A stretch of DNA of 64,000 nucleotides from Escherichia phage HermannAdler_Bas98. The number at the start of each line of letters is the position of its first letter. The first letter of the stretch is position 1. The position numbers were made by a program, and so were the translations under genes. The stretch lies in sequence record PQ850608.1. One strand, 5' to 3'. Below, piece after piece: positions 9,859 through 59,755 of this stretch. A model generated the notes under the pieces. It had not been told where the DNA came from. It searched no databases and was given only the letters and a program-made list of their open reading frames with translations.

Positions 9859-9881
9859 CATCTCTCTGAGAGGAATCTGTA

Positions 9882-11297: not shown

Positions 11298-11299
11298 AC

Positions 11300-12890: not shown

Positions 12891-12891
12891 A

Positions 12892-13308: not shown

Positions 13309-13311
13309 ACT

Positions 13312-15492: not shown

Positions 15493-15496
15493 TAAT

Positions 15497-16369: not shown

Positions 16370-16371
16370 AT

Positions 16372-16893: not shown

Positions 16894-16903
16894 AATATTG
16901 CTT

Positions 16904-16952
16904 ATAGACTCCTTATAGATTATAATTTGTTGATCAGATATAAGGAGTCTAT
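16904..16952 (+). promoter_or_regulatory. RBS-sequestering hairpin upstream of the spike gene
   Basis: A perfect 13-bp inverted repeat, ATAGACTCCTTAT (16904-16916) and ATAAGGAGTCTAT (16940-16952). The 3' arm contains the AAGGAG SD and the first two bases of ATG 16951. Confidence 0.6.
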
Positions 16953-17679
16953 GATGGCAGAAAAGTTAACCCAACTTACAAGCCCCAACCAAACTGACAA
17001 ATCAAGTATGTTTGCCGCGCTGCAGGGAATGCTGGACCGTGGCAAGTATACCACTGACGGCATGATTCCTGCACAAGTAATATCTTATGACCGCAAACAG
17101 AATTTAGCAGTCATAAAGCCTGTTATTCATTTCGTAAGTCTTGATGATAAACCAGTGGAGCGTCAACCACTGGTGTCAATTCCTGTATTGGCAATCGGCG
17201 GCGGCGGCTTCGTAATCAACTTTCCTCTGAAAGAGGGTGATTTGGGCTGGATATTCGCTGGCGACCGCGAGTTGTCGACATTCCTTGAAGAATTGAAGCC
17301 GACCGCGCCTACCAATGGCCGCGCGAAAACTTTCGCTGATGGACTGTTCATACCGGATGTATTTCGAAAATACACCATAAGCGGAGAGGATGCAGGCTCA
17401 ATGGTGATCCAGTCACTCAGCGGCGCTGTCCGCATTGCATTAAGTGATGACTCGATAAACATAACTGCATCGGCTGGAGTAAATGTGAAAACACCAATAA
17501 CCACTATCGACCAACAATTGATAGTTAATGGAAAGGCAACGTTCAATGGTGGTATAGAAGGGAAAGAAGGAACGACGGCAACGCTTCCGACTGGTACAAC
17601 AATCGGCGGCACAAATGTATCCACTCACGGTCACATAGGTAACGGACCTGGAAACAGAACTGGGGATATGATAGAATGA
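16951..17679 (+). CDS. baseplate central spike protein
   Basis: AAGGAG SD before ATG 16951. The N-terminal domain (IPAQVISYDRKQNLAVIKPV, GDLGWIFAGDRE) resembles gpV/gp138-type spikes. The C-terminus is Gly/Thr-rich and ends in STHGHIGNG. Confidence 0.55.
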   Translation: MMAEKLTQLTSPNQTDKSSMFAALQGMLDRGKYTTDGMIPAQVISYDRKQNLAVIKPVIHFVSLDDKPVERQPLVSIPVLAIGGGGFVINFPLKEGDLGWIFAGDRELSTFLEELKPTAPTNGRAKTFADGLFIPDVFRKYTISGEDAGSMVIQSLSGAVRIALSDDSINITASAGVNVKTPITTIDQQLIVNGKATFNGGIEGKEGTTATLPTGTTIGGTNVSTHGHIGNGPGNRTGDMIE

Positions 17680-18947: not shown

Positions 18948-18953
18948 GGAACT

Positions 18954-21692
18954 ATGCAAAAGTTTGACACAAACCTGTTGCAAAACCTTAAGTGGATGCA
19001 GAACAATGCACCAAACATTACATCTTTGGTGCAAAAGAAAAGTGACTGGTATGAAAGATACCAAGATCAGTTTTGGACTGACTGGTACAATAACATTTTT
19101 AACATTGACACTTGTGATGCAATGGGCATTTATATTTGGTGCGACATTCTTTGCATACCAAGAGACTTTGTGGACTTAAGCAATTATGAGCACAACTGGG
19201 CGTTTGGACCGACGCGCGACAACTTTGAAGGTGCGGACAACATCGGCGGCAACTTCTTTGGTGCTGGCGGGAAGGTTGTAAAGAATATCGAAGAAGCGCG
19301 CATACTTCTTAAGCTTCGTTATCTGACGCTTACAAGTGATGGTCGCATCGAAAGTATCAACCGCATGCTTAAGTGGATTTTCAACCGTGGAGAGGCTTGG
19401 GATTACTCTTCATCACGCTACGCATACGTGACCGACAACACTCAAGGTGCGGTGTCTTCATCTGAATCAACAAATGGATCATTCCTTCTATACGACTGGC
19501 AGGGGTCGACTGAGATTCAGCACGATTATAAGCAGATACTTTTAAGCCATGGCAACAACGCCGGACTGACTATCAGCGGAGTGTCAGGCACCGTGTCACG
19601 GATGGCGCACCCAGATTGGTACTCATGGGGGAATGGTTCCGGCACAGGTCTTGTCGGCGGCGACACCAGACAGTATGGTGGGCCTGATTACTATGGGCAG
19701 TTGTGTGGTGATTACCCAGGCGAGGCCATAGAGAATTTTGCCAACGCAGTAAGGGTCATCAAGACGGCTTCAAGCGGTGATCCTGTGTATTCTTTGGCCA
19801 ATAATCCAAGTGCCAAATCAATTTCGCTTCCTTCGCAGGCTGGCGTCAACGTTTGCTATAGCTTCTACATAAAGGTGCTTTCTGAAAATGTCGCTTCTGT
19901 TTCTGTTACAGAGAATAGTGATGCATCGAGTAATGGAAAGCTGTTTGACCCCGTCACTGGCCAGTTCAACTTGGACCCGTCATTGAGTTATTTCATCAAA
20001 GGCAAATTCGATGGAGTAAGAAGGGAATCAAACCGTGGTGGCATAAAAGCAATTGGCGGCGATTGGTATCGAATCTGGATTGTAGAGCAGACGGCAACCG
20101 CTGCTTCTGGAGTAAGTACCAGCTTTTCAATAGAGTTGAAGGCGACTGCCGCTGGATCAACTCAAACTCGTGAATTGCCTGAAGGGTCTGATGCTCTTTT
20201 GTTTGGATACTCGATTTGCGTCTGCGACCCTGTTCAGAATCCAAATGGACCTGAGCCTTATTTTTATGGAACGCAAAACCCTCCTTCTGACGGAACAGCA
20301 ATCCTGTCTGTAACGGCGGGAACACTCAATAACATCTCCTGTGCAAACGGACCGCTGACGACAAGAAACGGTGTGGTTGGCGAGTCATTCATGCAACCTG
20401 GCTCATCACTTGCATACTCTGGCTCAATCGGTGGCTACCCGTACCCAGGGAACGCCACGCTGATTGCAGAGACTGATGGAATCAGACGCTCATGGAACGT
20501 TAGCAGGCTGGATGGAGTACCGCCGCCGCCGACCGCCGACTATTACATGGAATACGTCATCGGACCTTATTTCGCCAACAACCTGTCTGACAACTTTAAG
20601 ACGCTAGTTGGCGACAGGAATGAAGGATTCTTGCCAGCAAATGCCGGAATACGTTGGCAGCTTTACCAAGAAGTCGCAGACTTATCTGATATTGATTTGA
20701 CCGTCAGCAACATAACAGACACGCGAGTAGGATTCGAAACGGAAGGTGTCGCATGGATTAACACTGACGGCATCATCAGAGTTGGCGGCATTAACGAGTG
20801 GCCGCTGAACAACTTCAACGGTGTGATACGCCAGCTTGAATCTTTGAAAGGTGTAAACCAGGTCGTCGACGGCGCACTTGTCAACGACTATTCAATCTCA
20901 AAAGCATCAAGAGATGACTTTGGTCGTGAAATACCACGCGCGCCAATCACTAACTATTGGCGCTACACACAGCCAAATGACGGTACATCTTTTGGCAATA
21001 TCATTGAGGATGGCGCAAACACTGTCACAGCGACGCCAATCAGCGGTGCGCCCAACCAGTTCCCATCATTCAAGCTTTCCGCTACAATAGGGACTGTGCC
21101 AGCATCCGGTTATGCACGCGCTGTGCTTGCTACTAAATACACTGGCACCCTGACTGGCCCTTTGTCATTTATCGCAATAGTCAAAAACAACACGGTTAAC
21201 GGTCAAAAACTTTTTGTAACTGTACCGGATGGGATGGGTGGCTATATCCCTAAATTCTACAACATAGGCGCAGGTGATTTGCAACGTATCGAAATTGACC
21301 TTGCCGCTGAGATTGTTGAAGGCGCTACCTGGGATGGATCAACAGGCGGCATCAGCATCGGTTTGATATCAGGGAAAGACTTGCCGACCGAAGTTGGTAC
21401 GACTCTTGAACTTGATATTTTAAGCTTGATGCTTGTGTCTGGTAGTACGATGAATGCGCTTGCAATTTCAACAAGCGAAGATTTTGCAAAGAAAACTGCG
21501 ACTTCTATATACATCAAAAACCCAGGATCACTTGCCACTGGAGTTCAATTGATTGCTTCTAATGGTGATGTTGTAGCAACAGTAAACTTTCCGAGAAGTG
21601 CTGCTGGTGGTTATGTTTCAAGCATGAACATAACTGACTTAACTGGTGATTGGGCATCAACCCTTTTATCAAAAATTAAATACATCGTGTAG
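18954..21692 (+). CDS. baseplate-attached tail fibre/wedge protein (DUF2612-like N-terminus)
   Basis: 912 aa. N-terminus NLKWMQNNAPNITSLVQKKSDWYERYQDQFWTDWYNNIFNIDT resembles DUF2612 tail proteins. It has a long C-terminal extension. Confidence 0.5.
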   Translation: MQKFDTNLLQNLKWMQNNAPNITSLVQKKSDWYERYQDQFWTDWYNNIFNIDTCDAMGIYIWCDILCIPRDFVDLSNYEHNWAFGPTRDNFEGADNIGGNFFGAGGKVVKNIEEARILLKLRYLTLTSDGRIESINRMLKWIFNRGEAWDYSSSRYAYVTDNTQGAVSSSESTNGSFLLYDWQGSTEIQHDYKQILLSHGNNAGLTISGVSGTVSRMAHPDWYSWGNGSGTGLVGGDTRQYGGPDYYGQLCGDYPGEAIENFANAVRVIKTASSGDPVYSLANNPSAKSISLPSQAGVNVCYSFYIKVLSENVASVSVTENSDASSNGKLFDPVTGQFNLDPSLSYFIKGKFDGVRRESNRGGIKAIGGDWYRIWIVEQTATAASGVSTSFSIELKATAAGSTQTRELPEGSDALLFGYSICVCDPVQNPNGPEPYFYGTQNPPSDGTAILSVTAGTLNNISCANGPLTTRNGVVGESFMQPGSSLAYSGSIGGYPYPGNATLIAETDGIRRSWNVSRLDGVPPPPTADYYMEYVIGPYFANNLSDNFKTLVGDRNEGFLPANAGIRWQLYQEVADLSDIDLTVSNITDTRVGFETEGVAWINTDGIIRVGGINEWPLNNFNGVIRQLESLKGVNQVVDGALVNDYSISKASRDDFGREIPRAPITNYWRYTQPNDGTSFGNIIEDGANTVTATPISGAPNQFPSFKLSATIGTVPASGYARAVLATKYTGTLTGPLSFIAIVKNNTVNGQKLFVTVPDGMGGYIPKFYNIGAGDLQRIEIDLAAEIVEGATWDGSTGGISIGLISGKDLPTEVGTTLELDILSLMLVSGSTMNALAISTSEDFAKKTATSIYIKNPGSLATGVQLIASNGDVVATVNFPRSAAGGYVSSMNITDLTGDWASTLLSKIKYIV

Positions 21693-24398: not shown

Positions 24399-24937
24399 CG
24401 CACATCCTGTGTCTTAACATTACCTGAAGCATCTCTTAATGGCAGTGGATAGTAGGCCATTTGGTAGTCTGATACGCCTTCAACATGATAAAACACGATT
24501 ACGTCTTTGCTGTTGATGAGCATGTTAACGACATCTGATTTATCTTCTGGAGTGAGTATGAGTGCGCCGCCTGTCCTGCTGTCTACTGCAACAGGGTATG
24601 TCTTATCGACAAGGCCGCTGTCCAATGTATTATACCTGACAACGATTTCAGGGGCATCAACTTTTGCAATTGACATTCCGAACACAAACGACACGACTTG
24701 GCGACCGCGATCATTCATTACGCACATCTTTTCCTTGTCAAACCTTTCCTTTATCACATCGTATTTATTCCAGCAAAATTCGAACGATTGGCCGTTGTTA
24801 AAATATCTCGTTAACACTTTGGCATTACTATTTGGCGGCGTAAACATACTTTCAGCCGCTGCACTTTTGGTGAAGAACAAAACTGTCAGCATAGCCATGA
24901 TGATGATCAAAACAATCTTTAAGTTTTTCGATTTCAT
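24395..24937 (-). CDS. secreted or membrane-anchored protein (180 aa), function unknown
   Basis: N-terminal signal/anchor MKSKNLKIVLIIIMAMLTVLFFTKSAAAES. Own promoter upstream at 24969-24996. Confidence 0.55.
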   Translation of the reverse strand: MKSKNLKIVLIIIMAMLTVLFFTKSAAAESMFTPPNSNAKVLTRYFNNGQSFEFCWNKYDVIKERFDKEKMCVMNDRGRQVVSFVFGMSIAKVDAPEIVVRYNTLDSGLVDKTYPVAVDSRTGGALILTPEDKSDVVNMLINSKDVIVFYHVEGVSDYQMAYYPLPLRDASGNVKTQDVR

Positions 24938-24968
24938 TATAATTCACCTTTTGATTACGAATATTAAT

Positions 24969-24996
24969 AGTATAGGCCGAAGGTTTTGAAAGTAAA
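24969..24996 (-). promoter_or_regulatory. sigma70-type promoter for the 24937-24168 cassette
   Basis: Minus strand: TTTACT, 16-bp spacer, TATACT. Confidence 0.5.
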
Positions 24997-25007
24997 TAAG
25001 GCGAAAG

Positions 25008-25040
25008 GTAAATAAAAGAAAAGCCGGAGATTTCCGGCTT
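25008..25040 (-). terminator. intrinsic terminator after the ligase gene
   Basis: Minus strand: AGCCGGA-aatc-TCCGGCT followed by TTTTCTTTTATTT. Confidence 0.7.
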
Positions 25041-25113
25041 TATGTATACACTGTATATTAAATTCTATAAAACGACGCGATAGATTATCCGCACCAATTA
25101 CTTATCTAGTGTC

Positions 25114-26091
25114 TTAAAAATACTCCATATCGGTAATATCACGGAAGCATTTATACAAAGCAGAGCGCGGCACGTCGACGATGCCAAAGTTAAAGAATTT
25201 ATACGTTAGGTATTTATCGCGATAGTTCTCGCGATTCTCCCAAAGCATTTTACGCTCTGCCATAGGCATTGAACCAGCGGAGACGCGGAAAGGAATCATT
25301 TCACCTTTCTCATCCACATATTTTGGATTGACGACTACGAATGAGCCAAGGTATCCTTTCGCAACTAAACCTTCAGCCTCTTTTGAACGCTTGGTGCGAC
25401 CCAATTCGTCAATGAATGCTTCGTTGTTGTTCTCCATCATCTCAACGAAGTCTATGATCAACCCTTCTTCATCGGTCCACGGCTTGTCCTTCCACACATC
25501 ACGTGACTTCGGCGTCGCGCGGCCATGCTTATATTTGCCCGTCCAAGACTTGCCATACAAGCCTTCATAGCCAAGCTGGTCTGCTTCGATTTGCATTGCC
25601 GCGTACTGGTCCATATTTTCGATGTTGCGATATTCGAGAGCGCGAAGGAATGGACGTCGGCCATGGTCAATGAGATGTTGATTGACCTCAGCAACACGTC
25701 GATTGTACTTCTCATAACGGGCCGAGAATGGCAAATCAGGTTCGCTAAAGTCATCAAACACCCACCATGTAAAGTTAGTGATTGCATCAGTGTTCATGCA
25801 TGCAGTATAGGCCTGTTGCATGACGTTCTTGTCATTTGGATTGCCGTCGATTAGCTCTCCATCAAGTCCGTGAATTAATTCACCCAAGAAGAGGAACTCT
25901 TTTTTGATTTGAATGTTGCGCAGCGCCATGCCGGACGTGCCCATTGGCAAGTTGTCATACGCCATTGCGCGTATGCCATCGACCTTGAATGACAATCCGC
26001 AAGGCAGCGGCACGTCTTCGCCGCGCTCGATTATTTGCTTACGCTGGCAACCCTTCATTGGTTTTAATGCTTTGATTTCTCCTGCCATCAC
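25114..26091 (-). CDS. ATP-dependent DNA ligase
   Basis: Motif I SFKVDGIRA (KxDG), plus LDGELI, EGLYGK and DVWKDKPW motifs in the canonical order. Confidence 0.85.
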   Translation of the reverse strand: MMAGEIKALKPMKGCQRKQIIERGEDVPLPCGLSFKVDGIRAMAYDNLPMGTSGMALRNIQIKKEFLFLGELIHGLDGELIDGNPNDKNVMQQAYTACMNTDAITNFTWWVFDDFSEPDLPFSARYEKYNRRVAEVNQHLIDHGRRPFLRALEYRNIENMDQYAAMQIEADQLGYEGLYGKSWTGKYKHGRATPKSRDVWKDKPWTDEEGLIIDFVEMMENNNEAFIDELGRTKRSKEAEGLVAKGYLGSFVVVNPKYVDEKGEMIPFRVSAGSMPMAERKMLWENRENYRDKYLTYKFFNFGIVDVPRSALYKCFRDITDMEYF

Positions 26092-37074: not shown

Positions 37075-37880
37075 CCTTTTGATACTCCATCTTTAGCAAC
37101 TGGATTGTTGGTGATTGGCATTGCACTCCAAAACTGGATGCGCAACTCTTCTTGCTGTGCCGTGGTATCCATCCAATCACGATACCAAGGGCAATGGGCT
37201 TTGCCATGACGAGGAAACGCGCATTTACCCATACCGATGCATTGCGGCTGTAATAGTGGATTTGCCCACGGGTGCACCTTGAGGACTTCCGCAACCATTG
37301 CGCGGAATACTTCTTGATACTCGCCTTGGGTGCGCGTGCACAAGCGGTTTGACGCCATCTGCTGCAGCGTGCGCAAGTTGAACTTTGCCATGATATGCGT
37401 TTGCATATTAGAAGGCAACACGGCACGTGCATCTTGAATCTCTGCGCCAGCCGCGCGAAGCTCTTGGTATAGAGCGTCAATCGTGGCCATCGCATCATCC
37501 CACTTCTCTGCCAATGAGTGATTTCTTATGTGCACATCATCAAATGCATTTTCATCATTGCAGTCAAAAGGGTGCTCGAATGCCTTCGGACGAATCGCAT
37601 CAAATGCAGACGACTCCTGAGCGCGGCTGGTGCGTTCTTGATATGCGCCTGTGCGTGTGCGTACCATCTGATGGGTCATGTTCTTTGATACAGCTGTGAT
37701 ATCAAAGATATAGTCCACAAAGTCAAAAGGAGACCTGATTGTATCAAGCATGTAGCGCCAGTGCTCTTGCTTCTCTGATTCTGTCATCTCAGAGACTGGC
37801 TTACCAGTCATGCGCGTGTTCTTTGTTTCCAGCAAAAGGTCAAGTGCATCTTGGGTGTATCGAATTAATTCAACTTTCAT
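37071..37880 (-). CDS. thyX: flavin-dependent thymidylate synthase-like protein (divergent ThyX)
   Basis: Alignable by eye to ThyX: QMVRTRTGAYQERTSRA against the canonical QWFRHRIASYNELSGRY, and ARAVLPSNMQTHIMAKFNLRTLQQMASNRL against [29 protein letters not shown]. Extra Cys/His-rich C-terminus. Confidence 0.7.
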   Translation of the reverse strand: MKVELIRYTQDALDLLLETKNTRMTGKPVSEMTESEKQEHWRYMLDTIRSPFDFVDYIFDITAVSKNMTHQMVRTRTGAYQERTSRAQESSAFDAIRPKAFEHPFDCNDENAFDDVHIRNHSLAEKWDDAMATIDALYQELRAAGAEIQDARAVLPSNMQTHIMAKFNLRTLQQMASNRLCTRTQGEYQEVFRAMVAEVLKVHPWANPLLQPQCIGMGKCAFPRHGKAHCPWYRDWMDTTAQQEELRIQFWSAMPITNNPVAKDGVSKG

Positions 37881-37893
37881 TTTAATTATCCTA

Positions 37894-38340
37894 TTAACGG
37901 TAATTCACTAGTTGCTGATCACCAGAGAAGGTGCAATGATAAACGAATTGTGCGTTATAAAGCAACTGAAAACTTTTCTTTGGTTCATTATTAGAACTCA
38001 TTGATGTAAAGATTTCTGCACCAGAACGGTTTTCACCAATCAGGTTAATAAAGTCGCCAGTTGAACGAGGCTGAACGAAAGTGAAACGCTGCATCCACGG
38101 AGTCCGGTTGGCACCTTTTCCGGTGAATCCCTGAATCTGAATATTCAGACCTTCTTGCTCGTTCACACCGATGTAAGTGGTAATTGTTGCGCCAGTCGTC
38201 GCTGCAGTCTTGCCGTCCATCGCTTCGCAATCGTAAACAGCGATTGAATCGGAAGTACGGACAGCGGCTTCAGTCGCTTCCATATACATGGTTCCGAGAA
38301 TAGCAGTTGCGGCAAGCGCGATTCCAGTGATGCGTTTCAT
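37894..38340 (-). CDS. secreted protein, function unknown
   Basis: Signal-peptide-like N-terminus MKRITGIALAATAILGTMYMEATEA. 148 aa. Confidence 0.5.
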   Translation of the reverse strand: MKRITGIALAATAILGTMYMEATEAAVRTSDSIAVYDCEAMDGKTAATTGATITTYIGVNEQEGLNIQIQGFTGKGANRTPWMQRFTFVQPRSTGDFINLIGENRSGAEIFTSMSSNNEPKKSFQLLYNAQFVYHCTFSGDQQLVNYR

Positions 38341-38358
38341 TTTCGTTTCCTCTATGAG

Positions 38359-38404
38359 TTCTGCTTCAATGATTAAAGTATACGCCCATTGAAGCAGAAA
38401 GCAA
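38359..38404 (-). promoter_or_regulatory. sigma70-type promoter with its -10 nested in a perfect 13-bp inverted repeat
   Basis: Minus strand: TTGCTT (38404-38399), 16-bp spacer, TATACT (38382-38377). The inverted repeat TTCTGCTTCAATG (38359-38371) and CATTGAAGCAGAA (38387-38399) brackets the -10. Confidence 0.55.
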
Positions 38405-38405
38405 A

Positions 38406-39401
38406 TTATTTATTAGCAATATAAGCAAATTTTTGATAGTTATTTGCTTTGATGAGTTTTTCAACTTCAGCAAGGTCATGAGCGACGTCATCAAGCAAAA
38501 TGTTTCGCCAAGTAGCGAATCGACCGACACTAAATACGTTCAAATCCATGGTCAGTTGCAGGAGTAGAGCGTGTCGCAAGTCTTTCGGAATGTCGACAAT
38601 CTTGCCATACTTCTGGTCGACCTTTTCAACTTCTTCGAGAGCGATGTCACTCCATGATAGGCCAAAGGCTGTCAATACTTCGTCAACTTCTGCACGCAAC
38701 TTAATGTCACGGTAACGAGTAATGCCGCCAGCGGCTTCAACTGCGGCTTCACTTACGCTAACCAAAGGAATTGTTTCGATGATCAGCGTGTCACCAGTGA
38801 TTGATGCGCGGTAAGTTCTGACGGAGTAGTCAGGGAAGTAAATTGTCTGATACAACTCACACTTACGTTTAATCTTAAAGCGGTAAACACGAATGTTTGC
38901 TTTATCAAATGAAAAATCAAGCTTTTGATCAATCCCAGCCAGCTTCATCATAACTGGCAGCGGCGACGTGTTGATGATTGGCGTCTCGCTATAGCCGCAA
39001 AGAGTATCAACAGGAGTATTAAAGAATATGCGGTCGCCCAGTTTGTCGACAAGCTGATCATAAAAGTCATCAGGCGCAATATAACGCGTTGCAGTTTTAA
39101 GCTTCATGATTGAACGGCTGCCAAACTGATTGGTGACCTTCATGGAATACATATTGGCAAGGTTGATTGGACAATGGTCGTGGTAGTAGTTGCCGCGAAA
39201 ATACACAGCCTTGTCAACTGTCACGGCCTTAAAAGGGATTCCGGTAATACGGCTTACTTCTTCGCCGCGAAAGCGTAGCAGTGCCTTGTGCTGTGGCGCT
39301 CGCTCCCCTGCTTCGTACACAATAGAGTTCGGGAAGTGACACGCGGTGATAAGTCCTGCCAAACCGCCGCCGATAATCATTACAGGTTGTTTCATGTTCA
39401 T
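38406..39401 (-). CDS. FAD/NAD(P)-binding oxidoreductase
   Basis: N-terminal Rossmann motif VMIIGGGLAGLITA. C-terminal VGRFATWRNILLDDV resembles the tail of UDP-galactopyranose mutase/amine-oxidase-type flavoproteins. Confidence 0.55.
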   Translation of the reverse strand: MNMKQPVMIIGGGLAGLITACHFPNSIVYEAGERAPQHKALLRFRGEEVSRITGIPFKAVTVDKAVYFRGNYYHDHCPINLANMYSMKVTNQFGSRSIMKLKTATRYIAPDDFYDQLVDKLGDRIFFNTPVDTLCGYSETPIINTSPLPVMMKLAGIDQKLDFSFDKANIRVYRFKIKRKCELYQTIYFPDYSVRTYRASITGDTLIIETIPLVSVSEAAVEAAGGITRYRDIKLRAEVDEVLTAFGLSWSDIALEEVEKVDQKYGKIVDIPKDLRHALLLQLTMDLNVFSVGRFATWRNILLDDVAHDLAEVEKLIKANNYQKFAYIANK

Positions 39402-39425
39402 TTGTCCTTTGTGGGTGATATGAGA

Positions 39426-39454
39426 AGTATAATAGCTAAATTATTTTACAGCAA
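39426..39454 (-). promoter_or_regulatory. sigma70-type promoter for the oxidoreductase operon
   Basis: Minus strand: TTGCTG, 17-bp spacer, TATACT. Confidence 0.55.
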
Positions 39455-39480
39455 CAAGTCATTTCTATTTAGTACAGACG

Positions 39481-39507
39481 AAAAAAGACCCACAACAAGT
39501 GTGGGTC
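39481..39507 (-). terminator. intrinsic terminator after the K/A/E-rich protein gene
   Basis: Minus strand: GACCCACA-cttgt-TGTGGGTC followed by TTTTTT. Confidence 0.75.
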
Positions 39508-47354: not shown

Positions 47355-47629
47355 TTACTACATACAAAGTATTCTTCGTCAAGTGCACATCATCTATTGA
47401 TGACCAATTTACTGCTGGCAAGAATTATCCCGTGATTTCTGAGTCAAAGCTAGATATAATCTTGAACGATCATGAAATCTATGAGCCGATGCCAGCGACT
47501 GCGTTTGATGTTATCGGTCACGTTCGGATTAAGACGAATGTTGAAACGATGCATGATCCGTTGTTCAAGAAGCAAATTAAGAATGCCATGCAAGACTTTT
47601 GCGCGGCTATGTTTAAATATTATAAGTGA
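47351..47629 (+). CDS. hypothetical protein
   Basis: ATGA overlap start at 47351, preferred over the track start 47330. Confidence 0.45.
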   Translation: MITTYKVFFVKCTSSIDDQFTAGKNYPVISESKLDIILNDHEIYEPMPATAFDVIGHVRIKTNVETMHDPLFKKQIKNAMQDFCAAMFKYYK

Positions 47630-53550: not shown

Positions 53551-53999
53551 TGGGTAACAAGCTTATCGCCGCTGGTTGGGCCATACCGAAGTGGGCTCAT
53601 CGTGCGCACTACTTTGATGAAGGAGAAGTGCAAAGCCTTTGCGGTCGCGCAACATACTTTGGTGATGAGCGCGTCAGCGGCGATTACATCGACTCGCTTT
53701 TAGGCAAAGGTGATTGCAAGAAATGTCAGGATATATTAAGAGATATTCTAACGCAAAAAGGACTGCTTGAGCTTGATGAGTCGGAGGAAGTAATAGAGCT
53801 TAAGCTTGAAGCCAATCACCTTATTAATATGTTCAAGAATTATTACTCAACGAATATGCGCTCAAAGATGCGTGAGGAAGTAATAAAAGAGGTGCTCACT
53901 TACAATCCGTTAAGGATGAATAAAACTAAACTGAAGAAGTTTAATGCAATAGTAAGAAAGGAATTTAGACGGCTTGGAGTGAAGAATTTTATATTTTAA
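53547..53999 (+). CDS. hypothetical protein (possible zinc ribbon)
   Basis: 150 aa. SLCGR ... CKKC. Last gene before terminator 54016-54040. Confidence 0.45.
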   Translation: MMGNKLIAAGWAIPKWAHRAHYFDEGEVQSLCGRATYFGDERVSGDYIDSLLGKGDCKKCQDILRDILTQKGLLELDESEEVIELKLEANHLINMFKNYYSTNMRSKMREEVIKEVLTYNPLRMNKTKLKKFNAIVRKEFRRLGVKNFIF

Positions 54000-54015
54000 T
54001 TATGATTAATGTTAA

Positions 54016-54040
54016 GAGGGCCGATTGGCCCTTTTTATTT
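54016..54040 (+). terminator. intrinsic terminator ending the small-gene array
   Basis: GGGCC-gatt-GGCCC followed by TTTTTATTT. Confidence 0.7.
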
Positions 54041-54151
54041 GCCTGTGTAATGGGAGGCTTTTGTGGTTATTTACGATTCAAGGCTGTAATTTAAGAGAGC
54101 GAAAATATTATAATAATTTATCAAGATTATTGCATATTGTGGCAATCAACG

Positions 54152-54782
54152 TTTATACGTATTTATGACAGTTTAATCCACTAAATAATACGGATAGAAC
54201 AGTGAGGAAAATACAGCGGTGTATTTTAGTGTAAATATTGAATCAAAAATAAATAATTATGGTGCTATTATATACGCAGATTGTTTGTAATTTATAGGAT
54301 ATTTTATCGTGGAGTATTGGCTAACGGTGCGTTAGCCGTGGGTCTTGGTGCTTGTGGTGTTGATGCTCAGAATTTTAATAATGTTTTTAGTTTTAGTAAT
54401 CGTAGTCAATGATGATACGTATAAGAAAATGAGAGTCACCCCTTCACAGGATATTGTACCGTGGCCCTGTGGTGCGCCGCGCCTGGGATTGCTGGTATAC
54501 ACTGGTGCTATTTTGCCGCGAAGGCAGTCATTCATACGTATCATGACGTATCATTGGGCTATTGATTTATAAGGAAAAATACGCTGATACGGATGATACG
54601 GGTGCAAACATAATATATATAGAATTCCAGAAAATTAATTAACTCCATTTTGAATTAATTTAAATTAATTTTTTTCTACATCCTCATACTTATACTAAAC
54701 TTATATTCATACGTATCATCCGTAAGATATAAGTAAAAACAAGGACTTGCGGCAATACGGATGATACGTCATGATACGCTTC
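54152..54782. repeat. iteron/AT-rich element, copy 2, with outlying half-sites
   Basis: ATACGTATCATGACGTATCAT at 54533-54554, GATACGGATGATACGG at 54586-54602, an A/T core at 54605-54677, CATACGTATCATCCGT at 54708-54724, ATACGGATGATACGTCATGATACG at 54755-54778. Outliers are TTTATACGTATTTATGAC at 54152-54169 and AATACGGATA at 54187-54196. Confidence 0.8.
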
Positions 54783-54943
54783 GACCAGCCAGCAGCGGCT
54801 AAGTCATTGATTTGCATAGCAAGCGGCGAAAGGGATGGATTTCTTTTATACGTATCAAACAGTACACCACGCACCACGGTCCGCAATCCTATTTGCAATA
54901 TGATTTGTGTACGTTTATAGCCATAATGAACATCAATCTGCAC

Positions 54944-54972
54944 TTGAATATAATGTCCATCCATTGTATAAT
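54944..54972 (+). promoter_or_regulatory. sigma70-type promoter upstream of the TerS-like gene
   Basis: TTGAAT, 17-bp spacer, TATAAT. The predicted start site lies just before the first ATTTGCACTAT pair. Confidence 0.5.
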
Positions 54973-54992
54973 TCACACTATTAATTTGCACT

Positions 54993-55481
54993 ATGGGATT
55001 TTGCACTATGAGTCAAGATTATGTAGCGATGCCTGAAGACTTTGAAGACCCGCGATTCGCAGAGCACAATCAGGCTTTATTCGATGAGTTCATTGACCTT
55101 GTTATTCAGGGTCATGACATGCGCGCAGCTTTTGCACTAGTATTTGGAATGGAAGTTGCAACGGATAACTACACTGGCCAGCGAATCCTTTGCACGCAAC
55201 GCAATCCATACTACAAGATGCGCTTCAAAAAGCGTATGGAAGAGATGCCACTCAAGGATTTGTGGAGCGTAAAAGGTGCAATTCACAATTTGGTCAAGCT
55301 TGTGCGTGATCCAGAAGTCGCGGCGTCAGCCAAGCTTAATGCTATTCGTGAACTGAATATCATCTACGGCATCACGATGATTGATGAAAACGGCAATAGT
55401 AAAATGGGCCGTTCTATGGACGATTTCTACAAGGATTTTGGAGAGGCTGCCAAAGAAGGAGAGCAATTCTCCCGCCACTAG
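54993..55481 (+). CDS. small-terminase-like protein (tentative)
   Basis: HDMRAAFALVFGM ... QRNPYYKMRFKKRMEE ... DLWSVKGAIHNLVKLVRD ... AKLNAIRELNIIYGI has the HTH plus oligomerisation-helix pattern of TerS proteins. The start may instead be ATG 55008. No adjacent large terminase. Confidence 0.4.
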   Translation: MGFCTMSQDYVAMPEDFEDPRFAEHNQALFDEFIDLVIQGHDMRAAFALVFGMEVATDNYTGQRILCTQRNPYYKMRFKKRMEEMPLKDLWSVKGAIHNLVKLVRDPEVAASAKLNAIRELNIIYGITMIDENGNSKMGRSMDDFYKDFGEAAKEGEQFSRH

Positions 55482-55500
55482 CCAATTTGCACTATAAAAC

Positions 55501-55534
55501 GGCCCTAGAACACATGTTCTCCACTTCTAGGGCC
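55501..55534. terminator. 10-bp-stem hairpin (minus-strand terminator, possibly bidirectional)
   Basis: GGCCCTAGAA, 14-nt loop, TTCTAGGGCC. On the minus strand it is followed by GUUUUAUAG. Confidence 0.5.
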
Positions 55535-55595
55535 ATCGGTAATACGACGGGGAAGGTCGCACCCATAAACGCGTTAGAAAGTGTATTATTATAAG

Positions 55596-55859
55596 TCATC
55601 TTTTAGTCGCTTTACGTAACAATTTACGACCTTCAACCGTCCAATCGAACGACTCCACCAGCAGATTCGCACTATAACCTAAGACGATGCGCCCTTTCTC
55701 GTTATCGACCCGCCAACAAGTCTCGAATAGCATTCGATTTGCACTATTAACTATTGCCGCAACGCGCGTAGGGTAAGCGCAATTTGCACTATGGTCGTAA
55801 AGGGATAAGGTGCGACCACTTCCGATGGACAATGTAGCGATGAGAATAAGCGTATTCAT
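55596..55859 (-). CDS. hypothetical protein with hydrophobic N-terminus
   Basis: 87 aa starting MNTLILIATLSIGSG. Carries three copies of the ATTTGCACTAT motif on the opposite strand, each read as SAN. Confidence 0.4.
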   Translation of the reverse strand: MNTLILIATLSIGSGRTLSLYDHSANCAYPTRVAAIVNSANRMLFETCWRVDNEKGRIVLGYSANLLVESFDWTVEGRKLLRKATKR

Positions 55860-55880
55860 AAGCCACCAATTTGCACTATG

Positions 55881-55902
55881 AAAAGCGACCCCGAAGGGCC
55901 GC
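55881..55902 (-). terminator. intrinsic terminator after 55910-56536
   Basis: Minus strand: GCGGCCC-UUCG-GGGUCGC (one G-U pair) followed by UUUUCAU. Confidence 0.6.
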
Positions 55903-55909
55903 CATTCGA

Positions 55910-56536
55910 TTAGATAATCTGGAAGGTGTAGGACTTGTTGCCGAACTCGAAGTTCAAGCGTCCAGCTTCTTTAAGCTTCATGCGGAAGCGAATGTGCTTG
56001 CTATCCGGTAATCCCAGCGCGGCGAAGGCTACGCGGACCGATTTGAACTCGCCTACACCCTCGACCATAACGCCGTTACGGGTGAGACGCTTTTGCGCCA
56101 CTTCCTTATTATCCCAACTTTTTGCAATACCTTCGCTATTCGAACGGCGATGGGAAGGAGTTCCATTTTGCACTACGCAATTTGCACTATCGTTTAAGCC
56201 GCTCTTAACGAAGGCTTCATACTCTTCATCGCTCATCGCGTCGAGTTCTTCCTGGGTCGGCTCAGCCTTTTTAACGACCGCACGCGCCTTATGCGTTTTT
56301 ACATCACTGGACACTTCCTCACGCGGCTTCGCGTCGGGAATGGGCGATTCGTTGGACGGCTCATCGAGCGCGTTTAAGGACTCGATTAACGCGATTACGC
56401 GAGTCTCGGCGGTCCGGCGGTCCGCAAATTTCTTAATCGGCTTCGAACCGGAATTTGCATTATAAAATGCAACGAGGTCGGCGGTCTTAGTTGCGATAAC
56501 GTCGCCGCTAGTAGAAAAGCGATTTAAGCTAACCAT
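55910..56536 (-). CDS. hypothetical protein
   Basis: 208 aa. RBS context TAGGAGTTTATTATGG is shared with 56617-56931. CpG-rich codon usage. Confidence 0.5.
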   Translation of the reverse strand: MVSLNRFSTSGDVIATKTADLVAFYNANSGSKPIKKFADRRTAETRVIALIESLNALDEPSNESPIPDAKPREEVSSDVKTHKARAVVKKAEPTQEELDAMSDEEYEAFVKSGLNDSANCVVQNGTPSHRRSNSEGIAKSWDNKEVAQKRLTRNGVMVEGVGEFKSVRVAFAALGLPDSKHIRFRMKLKEAGRLNFEFGNKSYTFQII

Positions 56537-56616
56537 AATAAACTCCTATTTGTTAGGGCGCTAGGCGCGAAAGAATTTTATTAAAGCGCCGCGCACGACG
56601 CTCTAAAAATCCTCTC

Positions 56617-56931
56617 TTACTCTTCGTCGTCTTCGATTAATTCGAGGGCGAAGGCGTAAGCTTTGCTATCGTAATTAACTAAAACGGCGAGTTCGAACTC
56701 GTTAATAAACGCCGTTTTACCGCATAAATTTAATTCCGCATCGACTTCGAAGAATCCGTTTTCGTCGCGCTCTAAGCGAGAAGCAGCGAGTTGCTCGATT
56801 ACCGTCGCGTCGTTAATTTCTTCGCCTAAGCGAACGCCGGAGAATTTCGCGAGAATTTCGCCGTAAGTAAGCGTAACGCCCTGGACTTCGGCGGCGGCGT
56901 TTTCGAGGGTAAAGCGGGTAACGATAGCCAT
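56617..56931 (-). CDS. small acidic protein (104 aa)
   Basis: Ends LIEDDEE. Driven by the minus-strand copy of the promoter-leader cassette. SD is AGGAG. Confidence 0.55.
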   Translation of the reverse strand: MAIVTRFTLENAAAEVQGVTLTYGEILAKFSGVRLGEEINDATVIEQLAASRLERDENGFFEVDAELNLCGKTAFINEFELAVLVNYDSKAYAFALELIEDDEE

Positions 56932-56955
56932 AATAAACTCCTAGTTGGGAGAGGC

Positions 56956-57038
56956 GTTAACGACCTATTCGTTAACTCATCCCGTCCCGATATGAGTACA
57001 TTATAATATAGTGTAGAAAAAAGTAAAGCACTTTTTCG
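56956..57038 (-). promoter_or_regulatory. promoter-leader cassette P3 (minus strand)
   Basis: Minus strand: AAAAAGTGCTTTACT, 16-bp spacer, TATAAT, then CATATCGGGACGGGATGAG, then hairpin GTTAACG-AATAGGT-CGTTAAC (56976-56956), then AACTAGGAG SD. Confidence 0.65.
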
Positions 57039-57071
57039 ATAAAAATGCGATAAATTATTTTATCTTTTTTC

Positions 57072-57117
57072 TTTACTTCTTCGTACACTCGCGTATACTT
57101 GTTTATATCGAGACGGG
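57072..57117 (+). promoter_or_regulatory. promoter-leader cassette P1
   Basis: TTTACT (57072-57077), 16-bp spacer, TATACT (57094-57099), then TATATCGAGACGGG (57104-57117). Confidence 0.65.
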
Positions 57118-57155
57118 CGATGGCCCTTTCTTCTACTAGCATCGGGAGCTTTATT

Positions 57156-57458
57156 ATGACTACTTTAATCTCTTCCATCCTTACTTACGACGAAGACCGC
57201 TTAACCGTTCGCTCTCTTATCGCCGCCGTTAACGCGGAACTAGAATCTAGCGCCATTAAGGTCCGCGCGGTCGCCTTCATCGGCCTTTCCTTCGACGATA
57301 TGAAGTATGCCGAACGTAGCGCCATCCGCTTCGCGAAGACCGACGACGAAGCCGTTACCCTTATCGAGACGGTTACGCCGCGCGGCGAAGCGTTAATTAT
57401 CGTCGAGTATATCGACGTAGAAGGCGATAAATCTTATAAACATTTTATCGCAGAATAA
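57156..57458 (+). CDS. small acidic protein (100 aa)
   Basis: GGGAG SD before ATG 57156. Downstream of cassette copy P1. The track start 57099 lies inside the promoter. Confidence 0.55.
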   Translation: MTTLISSILTYDEDRLTVRSLIAAVNAELESSAIKVRAVAFIGLSFDDMKYAERSAIRFAKTDDEAVTLIETVTPRGEALIIVEYIDVEGDKSYKHFIAE

Positions 57459-57459
57459 C

Positions 57460-57542
57460 GAAAAAAGTGCTTTACTTCTTCGTACACTAAGACTATAATG
57501 TTTTATATCGAGAGGGGATGAGGTAGCGAATAGGTCACTACC
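57460..57542 (+). promoter_or_regulatory. promoter-leader cassette P2
   Basis: AAAAAAGTGCTTTACT, 17-bp spacer, TATAAT (57494-57499), then TATATCGAGAGGGGATGAG, then hairpin GGTAGCG-AATAGGT-CACTACC (57522-57542), then AACTAGGAG SD. Confidence 0.65.
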
Positions 57543-57566
57543 CTCCCGACTAACTAGGAGAATATT

Positions 57567-57857
57567 ATGATTACTTTAGCCGCTATCCGTTCCGCTCGCG
57601 TCGAAACTTCCGAAAACTCTAACGTATTTGGCGAAAAACTTAAAAACGTTTATCTCTTTAACGTAGATGCGACTATCGAGGAGCTTCACAGTCCTATCGA
57701 TTTTAGCGAATTTACGGAACTCGAAGAGGAAGATATTTCTACCTTCCGCGTTACTATCGAAGGCAAGGTTTATTTTGCTACGGAGTTCGGCGGCGAATAT
57801 CTCGCGGTATCCGAAGGCGAAGGCCGTTACTCTTTCTTTAAAATCGTTTCCTTATAA
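57567..57857 (+). CDS. small acidic protein (96 aa)
   Basis: TAGGAG SD. Downstream of cassette copy P2. Followed by terminator 57877-57902. Confidence 0.55.
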   Translation: MITLAAIRSARVETSENSNVFGEKLKNVYLFNVDATIEELHSPIDFSEFTELEEEDISTFRVTIEGKVYFATEFGGEYLAVSEGEGRYSFFKIVSL

Positions 57858-57876
57858 TACCCTTCCGTTACTAATA

Positions 57877-57902
57877 GGCCGCGCTTAGTCGCGGCTTTTC
57901 TT
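57877..57902 (+). terminator. intrinsic terminator
   Basis: GCCGCG-cttagt-CGCGGC followed by TTTTCTT. Confidence 0.65.
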
Positions 57903-58021
57903 CGTCCCTATCTCGATGCGCTCCTACGCGAAAACTCCTTTATCCTTCCCTTCGTCGTCGCATAATCTTCTTCGAGATGCGTCTTAGTTCGCATAACAGG
58001 TATTACGTTAAATGGAGAACA

Positions 58022-58102
58022 TCGCGTAAGTCCTTGTTTTATATAGACACCTATATCGGACCGTTAGGGCGGGTCGCGTAAGTCGTTGTTTTATAAAGGC
58101 AC
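58022..58102 (+). repeat. 29-bp direct repeat pair
   Basis: TCGCGTAAGTCCTTGTTTTATATAGACAC (58022-58050) against TCGCGTAAGTCGTTGTTTTATAAAGGCAC (58074-58102). Confidence 0.8.
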
Positions 58103-58220
58103 AAAACTTTCCCTTCGTTCCGAACTAAAACGAGAAATATGCCGACCCTTCGCCCGAAAATAGTACGTATGCGAAATTACATTCATCTCGAATAATCCCT
58201 CCCGATATTATCCTACACGC

Positions 58221-58283
58221 AATCATTCGCTTTCGAATCATTATGCTTCATATTATTATGCGTCGAATCATTCGCTTTCGAAT
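58221..58283 (+). repeat. 18-bp direct repeat pair, internally palindromic
   Basis: AATCATTCGCTTTCGAAT at 58221-58238 and 58266-58283. Each contains ATTCG-CTTT-CGAAT. Confidence 0.8.
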
Positions 58284-58498
58284 TGTAACGCTGGAAACTG
58301 TAACGTCGATTGATTATTGCGTTCGTGTGGTTTTTATGGCATGGGTCTTTTGGTGCGTTTTGCTACTTGATGGAATTTGCGGTACACTAATCAAAATACG
58401 ACACATTTGGTCCACTAACTTTTCAAAGAAAAAGTCCTAGACAGTACCGTACTATTTTGTACCCACAGGAAATTTGCAGTACACTCCTGAGCGGCAGG

Positions 58499-58526
58499 CA
58501 AAATAAAGGGCCGCACTAAGCGACCC
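58499..58526 (-). terminator. intrinsic terminator after 58556-58936
   Basis: Minus strand: GGGUCGC-UUAGU-GCGGCCC (one U-G pair) followed by UUUAUUUU. Confidence 0.6.
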
Positions 58527-58555
58527 ACGATTCACGGTTAAATCAGCAACACCCA

Positions 58556-58936
58556 CTATTCGCTCTTATGGGCATCACCAAAGCCATCCGCAATCTGGCT
58601 GATCAATGATTCAATGGACACAGTTTTACCAATTGATCGAGCGGTAATAGCAAGCATATTATCAATCAAACCATGATTGGATGCATATGGTCCAGGTTTT
58701 GAATCATCTTCAGGACAACCAAAAAGCTGGTCGCGCAAACTTTCGAGAGAACGCTCAATATTTTCCAGCTTCTCTTCTAAATCAGATTGGCGACGTAAAA
58801 CCCATGTTAAGTCTCGGTTGCCGACTTCCAATCCATCGAAATCGCAAGCTGGAACGTCAATTTTAATACTTGGATTAAAAGCAGTACCGCTGCCTTTAGT
58901 ATATTTGTGGTGATTGCGATCAATAGTTTGTGACAT
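58556..58936 (-). CDS. hypothetical protein
   Basis: ATG 58936 (MSQTIDRN...) is preferred over the track start 59002. Followed by terminator 58499-58526. Confidence 0.5.
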   Translation of the reverse strand: MSQTIDRNHHKYTKGSGTAFNPSIKIDVPACDFDGLEVGNRDLTWVLRRQSDLEEKLENIERSLESLRDQLFGCPEDDSKPGPYASNHGLIDNMLAITARSIGKTVSIESLISQIADGFGDAHKSE

Positions 58937-59030
58937 ATCATTACCTTTAATATTTGGGTGATTAACAATAACTATAATAAAGCCGCATAGCGCGGCATTC
59001 AAATCGGTTTGTTAATTGTAACGATTGAAT

Positions 59031-59126
59031 TTACTTATCCAACCAATCAATAAGCGCAATCATAGCAACAACAAATACTGCGCTGATTGCTAATATGATC
59101 AAGAACATCACAAAATCAACATTCAT
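59031..59126 (-). CDS. small hydrophobic peptide (31 aa)
   Basis: MNVDFVMFLIILAISAVFVVAMIALIDWLDK, the distal part of track ORF 59031-59309. Overlaps the end of the upstream gene by 11 nt. Confidence 0.3.
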   Translation of the reverse strand: MNVDFVMFLIILAISAVFVVAMIALIDWLDK

Positions 59127-59352
59127 CAATCGATACCAATTGTGCAGGGTCGCCGGATACAGTTGCGCCGATGATACCCATATGAGAGAAAAATTCTGAA
59201 TAAACTTCTTTCCAGTACTTGCGCGCAGCTTTCTGGGCTTGCCCTTTGCGCTTGTAGCTTTTACCTTGGAAGATGAAGCGGTCGTTTGCTGCGTTATATT
59301 CCACCACACCTTCCAGCCATTGTAAGAAAGCTACTGATTCATTTTGATTCAT
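59116..59352 (-). CDS. hypothetical protein
   Basis: 78 aa. Preferred over the overlapping frame 59031-59309 on amino-acid composition. Confidence 0.45.
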   Translation of the reverse strand: MNQNESVAFLQWLEGVVEYNAANDRFIFQGKSYKRKGQAQKAARKYWKEVYSEFFSHMGIIGATVSGDPAQLVSIDEC

Positions 59353-59359
59353 GTTAACC

Positions 59360-59755
59360 TCAACAATCTAATAAGAAAATTTTTAACCAGCTTTCTGCAA
59401 CCTCGCGGCCCGTAGCCAATCGGTCGGTATTTTCCATTGGTCTGGATTTACCGCATGGCAATCCTTTCTGTAGTTGTGTCCCACTGCCAATTCTTATCCA
59501 AATTTCCCCATCCTTGTCGACGTAGGCTTGGCAACCCATAATATCAAGTCTACTCATTAGGGTGTTAAAAACCTTGAGCCTTTCTTTGGCGATGTTGGCT
59601 GTTCCTCCATTTCTTGGACCACGGCGATTAACAGTCCGCTTCACAACCGGAATATCATTGGTGCGTCGCGGCTTGGGGCGGTAGTAGGCTTCTTCACCAG
59701 GAGTGACACCTGGCGTCAGTTCGCGCTTAAGCGCCTTTTCAATATCAATGATCAT
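59360..59755 (-). CDS. hypothetical basic protein
   Basis: 131-aa ORF. Confidence 0.45.
   Translation of the reverse strand: MIIDIEKALKRELTPGVTPGEEAYYRPKPRRTNDIPVVKRTVNRRGPRNGGTANIAKERLKVFNTLMSRLDIMGCQAYVDKDGEIWIRIGSGTQLQKGLPCGKSRPMENTDRLATGREVAESWLKIFLLDC

Follow-up and report, generated by a model that had tools for sequence, protein, structure and literature searches.

In phage T7, strong host-type promoters at the entering end of the genome drive small acidic anti-restriction genes (ocr, gene 0.3) first, and in Bacillus phage SPO1 a host-takeover cluster of small early genes with strong promoters lies in a long terminal repeat. The pre-early repeat of T5 and BF23 consists of two inversely oriented operons with host-type promoters, a terminator and a non-coding, repeat-rich inner border (PMC10644984). 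These phages resist type I, II and III restriction unless the sites lie in the terminal repeat, as has been shown experimentally (PMC10644984), and those working on T5 find it unclear how the pre-early A1 nuclease spares the phage's own DNA. In Autographiviridae, too, restriction sensitivity depends on sites in the leading region (PMC12455610). Here we analyse an island at positions 55482–58350 of a 64,000-nucleotide stretch (the window) of Escherichia phage HermannAdler_Bas98 (PQ850608.1). An original prediction, made from the letters alone, had described it as a CpG-rich, probably horizontally acquired segment encoding small acidic proteins, possibly a host-takeover or anti-defence module. 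We find that its dominant compositional feature, overlooked in that prediction, is the near exclusion of the dinucleotide pair CA/TG, and that the module represents a new version, unrelated by homology, of the early region found in T5-type terminal repeats.

The island is indeed CpG-rich. CpG observed/expected is 1.93 in 55482–58350 against 1.09 in the rest of the window, rising to 2.0–2.4 in a core at 56300–58200, and the predicted enrichment of TCGA (13.2 versus 4.1 per kb), CGCG (11.2 versus 4.7 per kb) and TTCGAA (2.1 versus 0.25 per kb) is present. The hand counts offered at the time, 14 CpG in 56551–56670 against 5 in 19441–19560 and 6 in 47401–47520, are exact, and 14 CpG per 120 nt is reached by only 2% of windows of that size outside the repeat described below. 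The quantitative composition analysis that the prediction had proposed thus finds CpG and dinucleotide frequencies deviating from the rest of the window; GC content does not differ between island and rest and was rejected as a discriminator. The symmetrised relative abundance of CA/TG is 0.47 over the whole island and 0.15–0.3 in the core, compared with 1.18 elsewhere, while that of TA is raised (1.12 versus 0.67). In 600-nt windows the CA/TG value is 0.23–0.33 in the core; the 54 kb outside the repeat have a mean of 1.19, a standard deviation of 0.10 and a minimum of 0.80. The 1,900-bp core contains 72 CA+TG where 278.6 would be expected at the rate of the rest of the window (P 2.5e-49), together with 210 CG (110 expected) and 7 CTAG (0.63 expected). 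All eight CA/TG-containing trinucleotide pairs are affected, CAG/CTG most of all (ten-fold; 6 versus 63.6 expected), and TCAA, CAAT, TCAG, CATG and CCAC do not occur in the island. Overall, the dinucleotide distance (delta*) of the island is 0.20; in the rest of the window the median is 0.04 and the maximum 0.11. Its left part, 55482–56299, is intermediate (CG observed/expected 1.3–1.7, TG/CA 0.5–1.0), with a gradient inside the two genes that lie there, g208 and g87: in g208, codons 1–70 hold 4.8 CA+TG per 100 nt and codons 71–209 hold 9–10. GATC avoidance was rejected as a feature of the island, GATC being absent from it in the window but present 0–3 times in relatives.

Selection on DNA words independent of coding content is familiar from phage oligonucleotide avoidance (palindromes, restriction sites, the rarity of CTAG in enterobacteria). 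Such avoidance is genome-wide, concerns 4–6-mers and is moderate in strength, whereas in the island one dinucleotide pair is depleted 4–6-fold in a sharply bounded block of ~2 kb, and CTAG, normally avoided, is 11-fold enriched. An exclusion of this size is among the strongest local compositional constraints that we know of in a bacterial virus. The literature searched yielded no description of CA/TG-poor or CpG-rich phage terminal repeats, and conserved CA/TG exclusion appears to be undescribed in the searchable literature.

The bias acts on the DNA and not on proteins or codons. All five open reading frames lie where they had been predicted, and the three proteins of ~100 residues are as acidic as claimed: g104 (56617–56931, minus strand, 104 residues) has an isoelectric point (pI) of 4.07 and a net charge of –15, g100 (57156–57458, plus strand, 100 residues) a pI of 4.65 and a charge of –7, and g96 (57567–57857, plus strand, 96 residues) a pI of 4.40 and a charge of –10; the 208- and 87-residue proteins are basic. 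Across g104, g100 and g96 there is not one CTG, TTG, GTG, TCA, ACA or CCA codon and a single GCA, codons that make up 21–35% of their families in the phage's long genes. When the same proteins are re-encoded with the usual codons of the phage, 17–25 TG and 13–16 CA are expected per gene, against 3–6 of either observed (z about –3.4 to –6.4). In this test the small terminase (TerS) gene has a normal composition, although it lies in the same repeat, and so does the first gene past the repeat. The acidic proteins under-use, by 2–5-fold, the amino acids whose every codon contains CA or TG (His, Gln, Cys, Trp and Met). The bias is present at every codon phase and on both strands, non-coding spacers show the same two-fold shifts, and even the promoters comply, with a –35 element of TTTACT instead of TTGACA.

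A different level of selection, on RNA or translation in very highly expressed early messages, could act through avoidance of NTG starts and of TGA in every frame, avoidance of endoribonuclease sites such as ACA, or the tuning of translation speed. The exclusion of TG does remove ATG, GTG and TTG in all frames, ACA occurs only 0–1 times on the sense strand of each acidic gene, the island coincides with the early transcription units and its CpG is concentrated at codon 3–1 junctions. We nevertheless regard selection of this kind as distinctly unlikely: on the sense strand CA and TG are equally low in genes of both orientations and remain so in the spacers and past the terminator, the codons that are chosen (TTA and CTC, with no CTG) are poor for E. 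coli translation, and the amino-acid content is itself distorted.

The position of the island in the genome follows from its relatives. Region 55400–58500 is 97.7% identical to Escherichia phage vB_EcoM_WFC (WFC) and 91–97% identical to ~25 other Wifcevirus genomes, which identifies the phage as a Wifcevirus, a genus of 66–72-kb E. coli and Shigella myoviruses distantly related to the Pseudomonas Pbunavirus. The records of WFC and WFH hold both genome ends, and the island region matches each record twice; in the Mansfield record, 1–3673 is annotated as a repeat_region, a direct terminal repeat (DTR) predicted by PhageTerm. Aligned to the window, which holds one collapsed copy, the Mansfield repeat spans 54648–58350, in keeping with the ~3.7 kb given for the terminal repeat by Korf et al. 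(2019). The inner boundary lies at 58350 by this mapping, which is also where the original prediction had set the right edge of the island, or at 58431 by comparison of the end copies of WFC, which are identical over 3,784 bp ending there. Read rightwards, the repeat opens with an AT-rich stretch, followed by the TerS gene (54993–55481, plus strand; E 6e-34 to the solved small terminase 7UXE, phrog_4783, and annotated as such in Mansfield), a strong hairpin and the island, which makes up the TerL-proximal two-thirds, the signature being lost 100–200 bp before the repeat boundary. The island fills the rest of the repeat, and one physical end of the virion DNA therefore finishes in CA/TG-free sequence; the other repeat copy puts the island 0.8–1.7 kb from its own genome end. 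The start of the vB_Eco4M-7 record at the island edge was dropped as evidence for a terminus, as the synthetic-phage paper from which it comes gives no terminus data.

Such a position invites an explanation in cis, by a requirement of replication, packaging or ejection at the genome end. The end might, for example, lack priming and gyrase sites so that it stays single-stranded for concatemer formation, or the mechanics of the last-packaged, first-ejected DNA might matter. E. coli primase uses CTG and gyrase prefers the T-to-G junction, and no trinucleotide is depleted more than CAG/CTG; a primase and a polymerase are encoded by the phage itself; in three genera the island lies flush with one physical end, and the bias spans coding and non-coding DNA on both strands. 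A requirement in cis remains an unlikely account, however, since the depletion covers all eight CA/TG trinucleotide pairs rather than one motif, and the extent of the island follows the early transcription units, promoters and terminators included, and is not set by a constant distance from the end: in the Serratia phage MyoSmar it stops ~250 bp past the terminator, and in Wifcevirus it grades into g208. The enrichment of TA, the most flexible step, argues against a need for stiffness, and in the other repeat copy the island does not reach the end at all.

The signature is present in all nine Wifcevirus genomes examined (CG 1.86–1.97, CA/TG 0.41–0.59), surviving the absence of g104 (ECML-117 and RCIP0319), a shorter g104 allele (Mansfield, kaset and F13), a 500-bp insertion in F13 and the existence of two g96 allele classes. 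It also extends beyond the genus. Pantoea phage PA1, whose g208 homologue is 46% identical, has a CA/TG-poor block of ~2 kb beside that gene (TG/CA 0.28, CG 2.2), and Serratia phage SMP has a 1.7-kb block with TG/CA of 0.17–0.29. In the Myosmarvirus phages MyoSmar and MTx, with PhageTerm repeats of 3,559 and 3,566 bp, a block of ~1.8–2.0 kb is flush with one repeat edge, and in a 73,168-bp viral contig distant from PA1 the block again reaches the edge of an exact 3,603-bp terminal repeat. The block thus appears to be shared by three genera, Wifcevirus, Myosmarvirus and a Pantoea-type, Kylevirus-like group with two lineages, with the same repeat geometry kept despite sequence divergence and gene turnover between them. 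Among 79 viral-contig loci with a g208 relative, it was found only in these lineages; across 1.04 Mb of DNA from other relatives no 600-nt window falls below 0.55, the block is missing from Pseudomonas 14-1 and Xanthomonas XcP1, and no island was found within 10 kb of the g208 homologue in Pseudomonas and Xanthomonas phages and ~65 metagenomic relatives.

Two paralogues of the g208 family in SMP (7605–8639 and 12167–12670) allow a comparison within one genome. The longer carries an extra 130-residue N-terminal extension and lies outside the island, and the shorter is the first gene of the island operon; the copy in the block has 2.8 CA+TG per 100 nt and the one outside 13.5, a five-fold difference. 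Together with the persistence of the signature through gene turnover, this contrast indicates that the composition is a property of the place. A property of place kept over long divergence rules out a relic of a donor's signature, and leaves selection as the most economical cause. The idea that the island was acquired horizontally and kept a foreign donor's composition, as originally proposed, could draw on its strongly atypical dinucleotides and on its small genes being orphans. It is already largely refuted, and we give it next to no weight. The synteny comparison suggested with that proposal finds the island not patchy but present in every Wifcevirus genome examined and, in two or three further genera, at the corresponding place in the repeat. 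The signature outlasts gene turnover and fades gradually into g208, a vertically inherited gene; integrase, transposase, other mobility and tRNA genes are absent, and we know of no organism with a CA/TG relative abundance near 0.2.

In DTR phages the repeat is duplicated by a special synthesis step in each generation, and a local mutational bias arising from this copying or from repair, with no selective purpose, is a further conceivable source of the signature. Transitions at CA/TG would yield CG and TA, the two enriched dinucleotides, and the residual CA/TG of the island is less conserved than CG or TA (77.5% versus 89%). We consider such a bias very unlikely. The per-site rate of CA/TG loss is no higher in the island than in its flanks, the unchanged GC content would require opposite transitions to be balanced, the repeat is only partly affected, with TerS normal, the boundaries are sharp and track gene organisation, and the repeats of T5 and SPO1 lack the bias. 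New variants that create CA/TG stand at 0.84 of expectation in the core, against 1.14–1.36 in the flanks, which weakly suggests, in the expected direction, that selection is still active within the genus.

The arrangement of genes and signals within the island resembles the pre-early repeat of T5 and BF23. Three near-consensus sigma70-type promoters with upstream A-tracts (TTTACT, 16–17 bp, TATAAT or TATACT) correspond to the promoter cassette of the original prediction, occurring three times in the island and nowhere else in the window: a leftward promoter P_L (57000–57027, minus strand, TTTACT-16-TATAAT) and the rightward promoters P_R1 (57072–57099, plus strand, TTTACT-16-TATACT) and P_R2 (57471–57499, plus strand, TTTACT-17-TATAAT). 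The shared ribosome-binding context TAGGAG[T/A][T/A]TATTATG holds for g208, g104 and g96 and fails for g100, which has GGGAGCTTTATTATG. As read from the sequence, a leftward operon comprises g104 (its first gene), g208 and g87 and ends at a hairpin at 55501–55534, and a rightward operon comprises g100 and g96 and ends at an intrinsic terminator at 57876–57897 (plus strand), annotated in Mansfield, WFC and WFH. The hairpin, which had been picked out as the left edge of the island, has a 10-bp stem (–16.9 kcal/mol, z –3.4), stands between the convergent TerS gene and g87 operon, is annotated as a terminator in WFC and WFH and is likely a bidirectional terminator. Beyond the rightward terminator lies a non-coding, repeat-containing region of ~450 bp (57898–58350) that forms the inner border of the repeat. 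The degenerate repeats predicted there take the form of one 29-nt direct repeat pair and four imperfect inverted repeats. The region holds 43 CG (20.5 expected), 12 TG (24.8 expected) and 15 CA (28.6 expected), and is CA/TG-poor until ~58200. Hairpins in the leaders downstream of the promoters are no better than those of shuffled sequences (z –0.4 to –1.6), and an Rfam scan of 54000–59500 gave no match.

The locus therefore shares with T5 and BF23 a kilobase-scale DTR, divergent sigma70-type promoters, two operons, a terminator and a non-coding repeat border that corresponds by position to the T5 injection-stop region, and in both most genes are small, variable and of unknown function. It differs in several respects. 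Wifcevirus is an unrelated myovirus, its repeat measures 3.7 kb against ~10 kb in T5 and also carries the small terminase gene, and searches of Pfam, PHROG and NCBIfam matched none of the repeat-encoded proteins to A1, A2, Dmp or any phosphatase or nuclease family. The border region has no DnaA boxes. In composition, the T5 repeat (1–10219) has a raised CpG observed/expected of 1.31, compared with 0.74 in the adjacent 10 kb (10220–20000), with no depletion of CA/TG (0.94); it is a weaker mark of a leading region, and one that we have not seen reported. The SPO1 repeat has no compositional anomaly, and that phage shares no homology with Wifcevirus and infects a different host. The signature was accordingly rejected as a general property of long terminal repeats. 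With the T7-like leading region the island has in common promoter-driven small acidic genes and the setting in which leading-region sites decide restriction sensitivity (PMC12455610). Unlike in T7, the acidic proteins do not resemble Ocr or any solved protein in sequence, nor does the g96 model in fold, the resistance extends to type II and one type III system, and the avoidance covers a whole dinucleotide instead of specific sites.

Published restriction phenotypes can be set beside this architecture. Wifcevirus isolates of the BASEL collection resist EcoKI, EcoCFT_I, EcoRI, EcoRV and EcoCFT_II, with high sensitivity to EcoP1_I alone, a pattern that the BASEL authors found puzzling, as EcoCFT_II sites are as many as EcoP1_I sites and no protection is known. 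Our site counts in the isolate Bas101 match the BASEL table exactly (EcoRI 30, EcoRV 14, EcoKI 7, EcoAI-type 2 and AGACC 90), and there are 87 CACAG, both orientations being counted for CACAG and AGACC; CACAG is the only 5-mer that reproduces the published EcoCFT_II counts in Bas101 (87) and Bas01 (51). The repeats of both the window and Bas101 lack EcoRI, EcoRV and EcoAI-type sites and hold 0–1 EcoKI sites, although only 0.2–1.1 of each would be expected. CACAG occurs 0–1 times against ~5 expected, and about five AGACC (4–7) remain, in both orientations. Type III enzymes need an inverted pair of sites. As AGACC pairs remain in the repeat, the sole effective system, EcoP1_I, would be the one whose sites survive in CA/TG-free DNA. 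The phenotypes of all six systems are thus correlated with what the T5 rule would predict, and a T5-like early module whose only cleavable repeat sites are those of EcoP1_I offers a concrete, testable explanation of the restriction resistance. Avoidance of restriction sites in general was rejected as a full explanation because its effect, though significant, is too small: a ban on CA/TG raises the share of absent words from 9% to 22% for 5-mers and from 46% to 55% for 6-mers, and leaves 6-bp palindromes unchanged.

The reading that we favour, if tentatively, is that the island is an immediate-early ('pre-early'-type) leading-end module with sequence-level stealth; the explanations by a requirement in cis, by selection on RNA and by mutational bias each fit the data less well. 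Under this reading, host RNA polymerase would transcribe the island from its three strong sigma70-type promoters as two divergent operons, and selection on the DNA itself would hold the segment almost free of CA/TG, with CG and TA in their place. The most likely reason for the exclusion would be that island DNA is exposed in the cell before any phage protection exists, so that removing CA/TG would deprive sequence-dependent nucleases of sites to recognise or attack. Protecting the remaining genome would then fall to the early products, the foremost candidates being the fast-evolving acidic proteins. In this scheme we infer the early timing, the first-entering end, the purpose of the CA/TG exclusion and the functions of the proteins. 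The choice of leading end draws on the TerS gene and an array of ATTTGCACTAT motifs on the other side of the repeat: if packaging starts there, as it usually does close to terminase recognition sites, the island-flush end would be packaged last and ejected first. From that end the g104–g208–g87 operon is read inward, as is the whole operon in MyoSmar, and since the repeat is present at both genome ends, the module would lie near the leading end either way. Of the strand-symmetric pairs, CA/TG can probably be banned from coding DNA at the lowest cost, since the amino acids that need it are all rare.

Several observations weigh against this reading. Which end leads and when the island genes are expressed are points that we infer, no island protein has a demonstrable function, and the T5 repeat does without CA/TG depletion. 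The polymorphism signal is weak (p 0.03). The correlation with phenotypes covers six systems and consists mainly of the contrast between EcoCFT_II and EcoP1_I, and the EcoCFT_II motif CACAG was deduced from site counts, the source giving the recognition sequence in a figure only. The site rule does not hold everywhere, as Tequintaviruses are resistant to EcoPI although their repeat contains its sites (PMC10644984), and the Serratia islands hold several EcoRI sites, though EcoRI is irrelevant in that host. The generic loss of recognition sites, moreover, is modest and seems a small return for such costly recoding.

With its dinucleotide grain, the bias hints at a very unspecific activity, either of the host or of the phage itself. 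It is conceivable, although we would not expect it, that the composition is itself the immunity, with the leading ~2 kb written in a reduced dinucleotide alphabet that is safe from a near-dinucleotide-specific activity, be it the phage's own early function for destroying or silencing host DNA or an uncharacterised enterobacterial defence. The protective device would then be composition, not a protein or a base modification, and if the attacker is the phage's own function, Wifcevirus would have solved in another way the problem, posed by T5, of how pre-early DNA survives. In its specific form, this self-immunity would mean that the phage destroys or silences host DNA by an early function whose activity is CA/TG-dependent and which the early module must survive, the remaining genome being guarded by delayed entry or a later inhibitor. 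A bias at the dinucleotide level suits a low-specificity nuclease or binder better than classical restriction enzymes, the gain from generic site avoidance is small, the same escape problem exists in T5, the closest analogue, and the Wifcevirus cycle is reported to be extremely fast (BASEL). We judge self-immunity of this form unlikely, however: Pfam, PHROG and NCBIfam reveal no nuclease-like protein in the repeat and no homologue of A1, A2 or Dmp, outside the island the genome has normal CA/TG and would have to be protected separately, and Wifcevirus is not known to degrade host DNA. Leaving the identity of the attacker aside, the bias would imply an unknown CA/TG-dependent activity on incoming phage DNA. 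The synthetic assembly and reboot system published for vB_Eco4M-7 makes recoding of the island feasible now, and the signature could serve as a search criterion for leading-end modules in other phages.

Returning to the favoured reading of an early leading-end module, its candidate effectors are the acidic proteins. Like the DNA mimics Ocr and ArdA, they are small and strongly acidic, and would be expressed early judging from their promoters. The originally suggested role as DNA mimics is nevertheless not supported: they belong by sequence to none of the known anti-restriction families and match nothing in Pfam, PHROG, NCBIfam or the PDB. The three are orphans with no detectable paralogy among them. 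A deep profile search with g104 gave three matches among 1.84 billion representatives, and a homologue is present in Pantoea PA1; its AlphaFold2 model is unusable (predicted local distance difference test score, pLDDT, 45). The g96 model (pLDDT 71.6) folds reproducibly into a beta-rich domain that has no structural neighbour in the PDB or BFVD other than its own orthologue. The two g96 allele classes are 61–65% identical and share an invariant N-terminal stretch of 37 residues. F13 carries an internal duplication of ~300 bp, and ECML-117 and F13 have an extra 69-residue gene after g96. The fast turnover of the acidic genes, seen also in the missing and shortened alleles of g104, next to an invariant g208 is typical of counter-defence loci. 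The prediction of a host-takeover or anti-defence module is therefore plausible, with contextual support from the position in the DTR, the promoters, the T5-like layout, the gene turnover and the restriction phenotypes; the accompanying proposal of horizontal acquisition was not upheld. Four or five of the small island genes are candidates for a broad anti-restriction function.

The two basic proteins of the leftward operon have a wider distribution. g208 (55910–56536, minus strand; phrog_4730) encodes a two-domain protein of 208 residues that is 98–100% identical within the genus and has homologues in 355 phage records, including Pbunavirus and phages of Xanthomonas, Ralstonia, Pantoea and Serratia. 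It is best taken as ancestral to the Pbunavirus-like supergroup and not as foreign. Neither a single sequence nor a six-genus profile of g208 matched the PDB or Pfam, and the homologue search made for an alignment returned near-identical sequences only. The 87-residue product of g87 (55596–55859, minus strand; pI 9.7) has a signal-peptide-like N-terminus and three SAN repeats and looks to be exported; a homologue with the same features is found in Pantoea PA1. Ten same-strand copies of ATTTGCACTAT (plus strand, at most 1 mismatch) form an array at 54891–56463, which thus holds 10 of the 11 matches in the window, where shuffled sequences give a mean of 2. Copies overlie the start codon of TerS as well as the hairpin between the genes, and in g208 and, three times, in g87 the motif is translated as 'SAN'. 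All Wifcevirus loci keep the array, and eight copies lie beside the g208 and g87 homologues of Pantoea PA1 (8610–9309); Myosmarvirus, 14-1 and XcP1 do not have it. It could be a terminase (pac) or regulator binding array serving packaging or regulation.

Two copies of AATTTGC[A/G]GTACACT stand just beyond the repeat, at 58374–58391 and 58470–58487; their GTACACT recurs in the three early promoter cassettes, and their AATTTGC in the ATTTGCACTAT motif. At the other side, a stretch of 33–36% GC (53750–55000) crosses the left DTR boundary, and two consensus-like promoters at 54927–54972 lie upstream of TerS. Elsewhere in the window, CpG observed/expected also reaches 1.85–2.0 at 2001–2750 and 24751–25250, at 35–36% GC and with normal CA/TG; these peaks are a small-denominator effect and a different phenomenon from the island. 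The second-largest dinucleotide deviation of the window (delta* 0.10–0.11 against the median of 0.04) falls at 37500–39500, in what synteny with Bas101 suggests is a block of replication genes.

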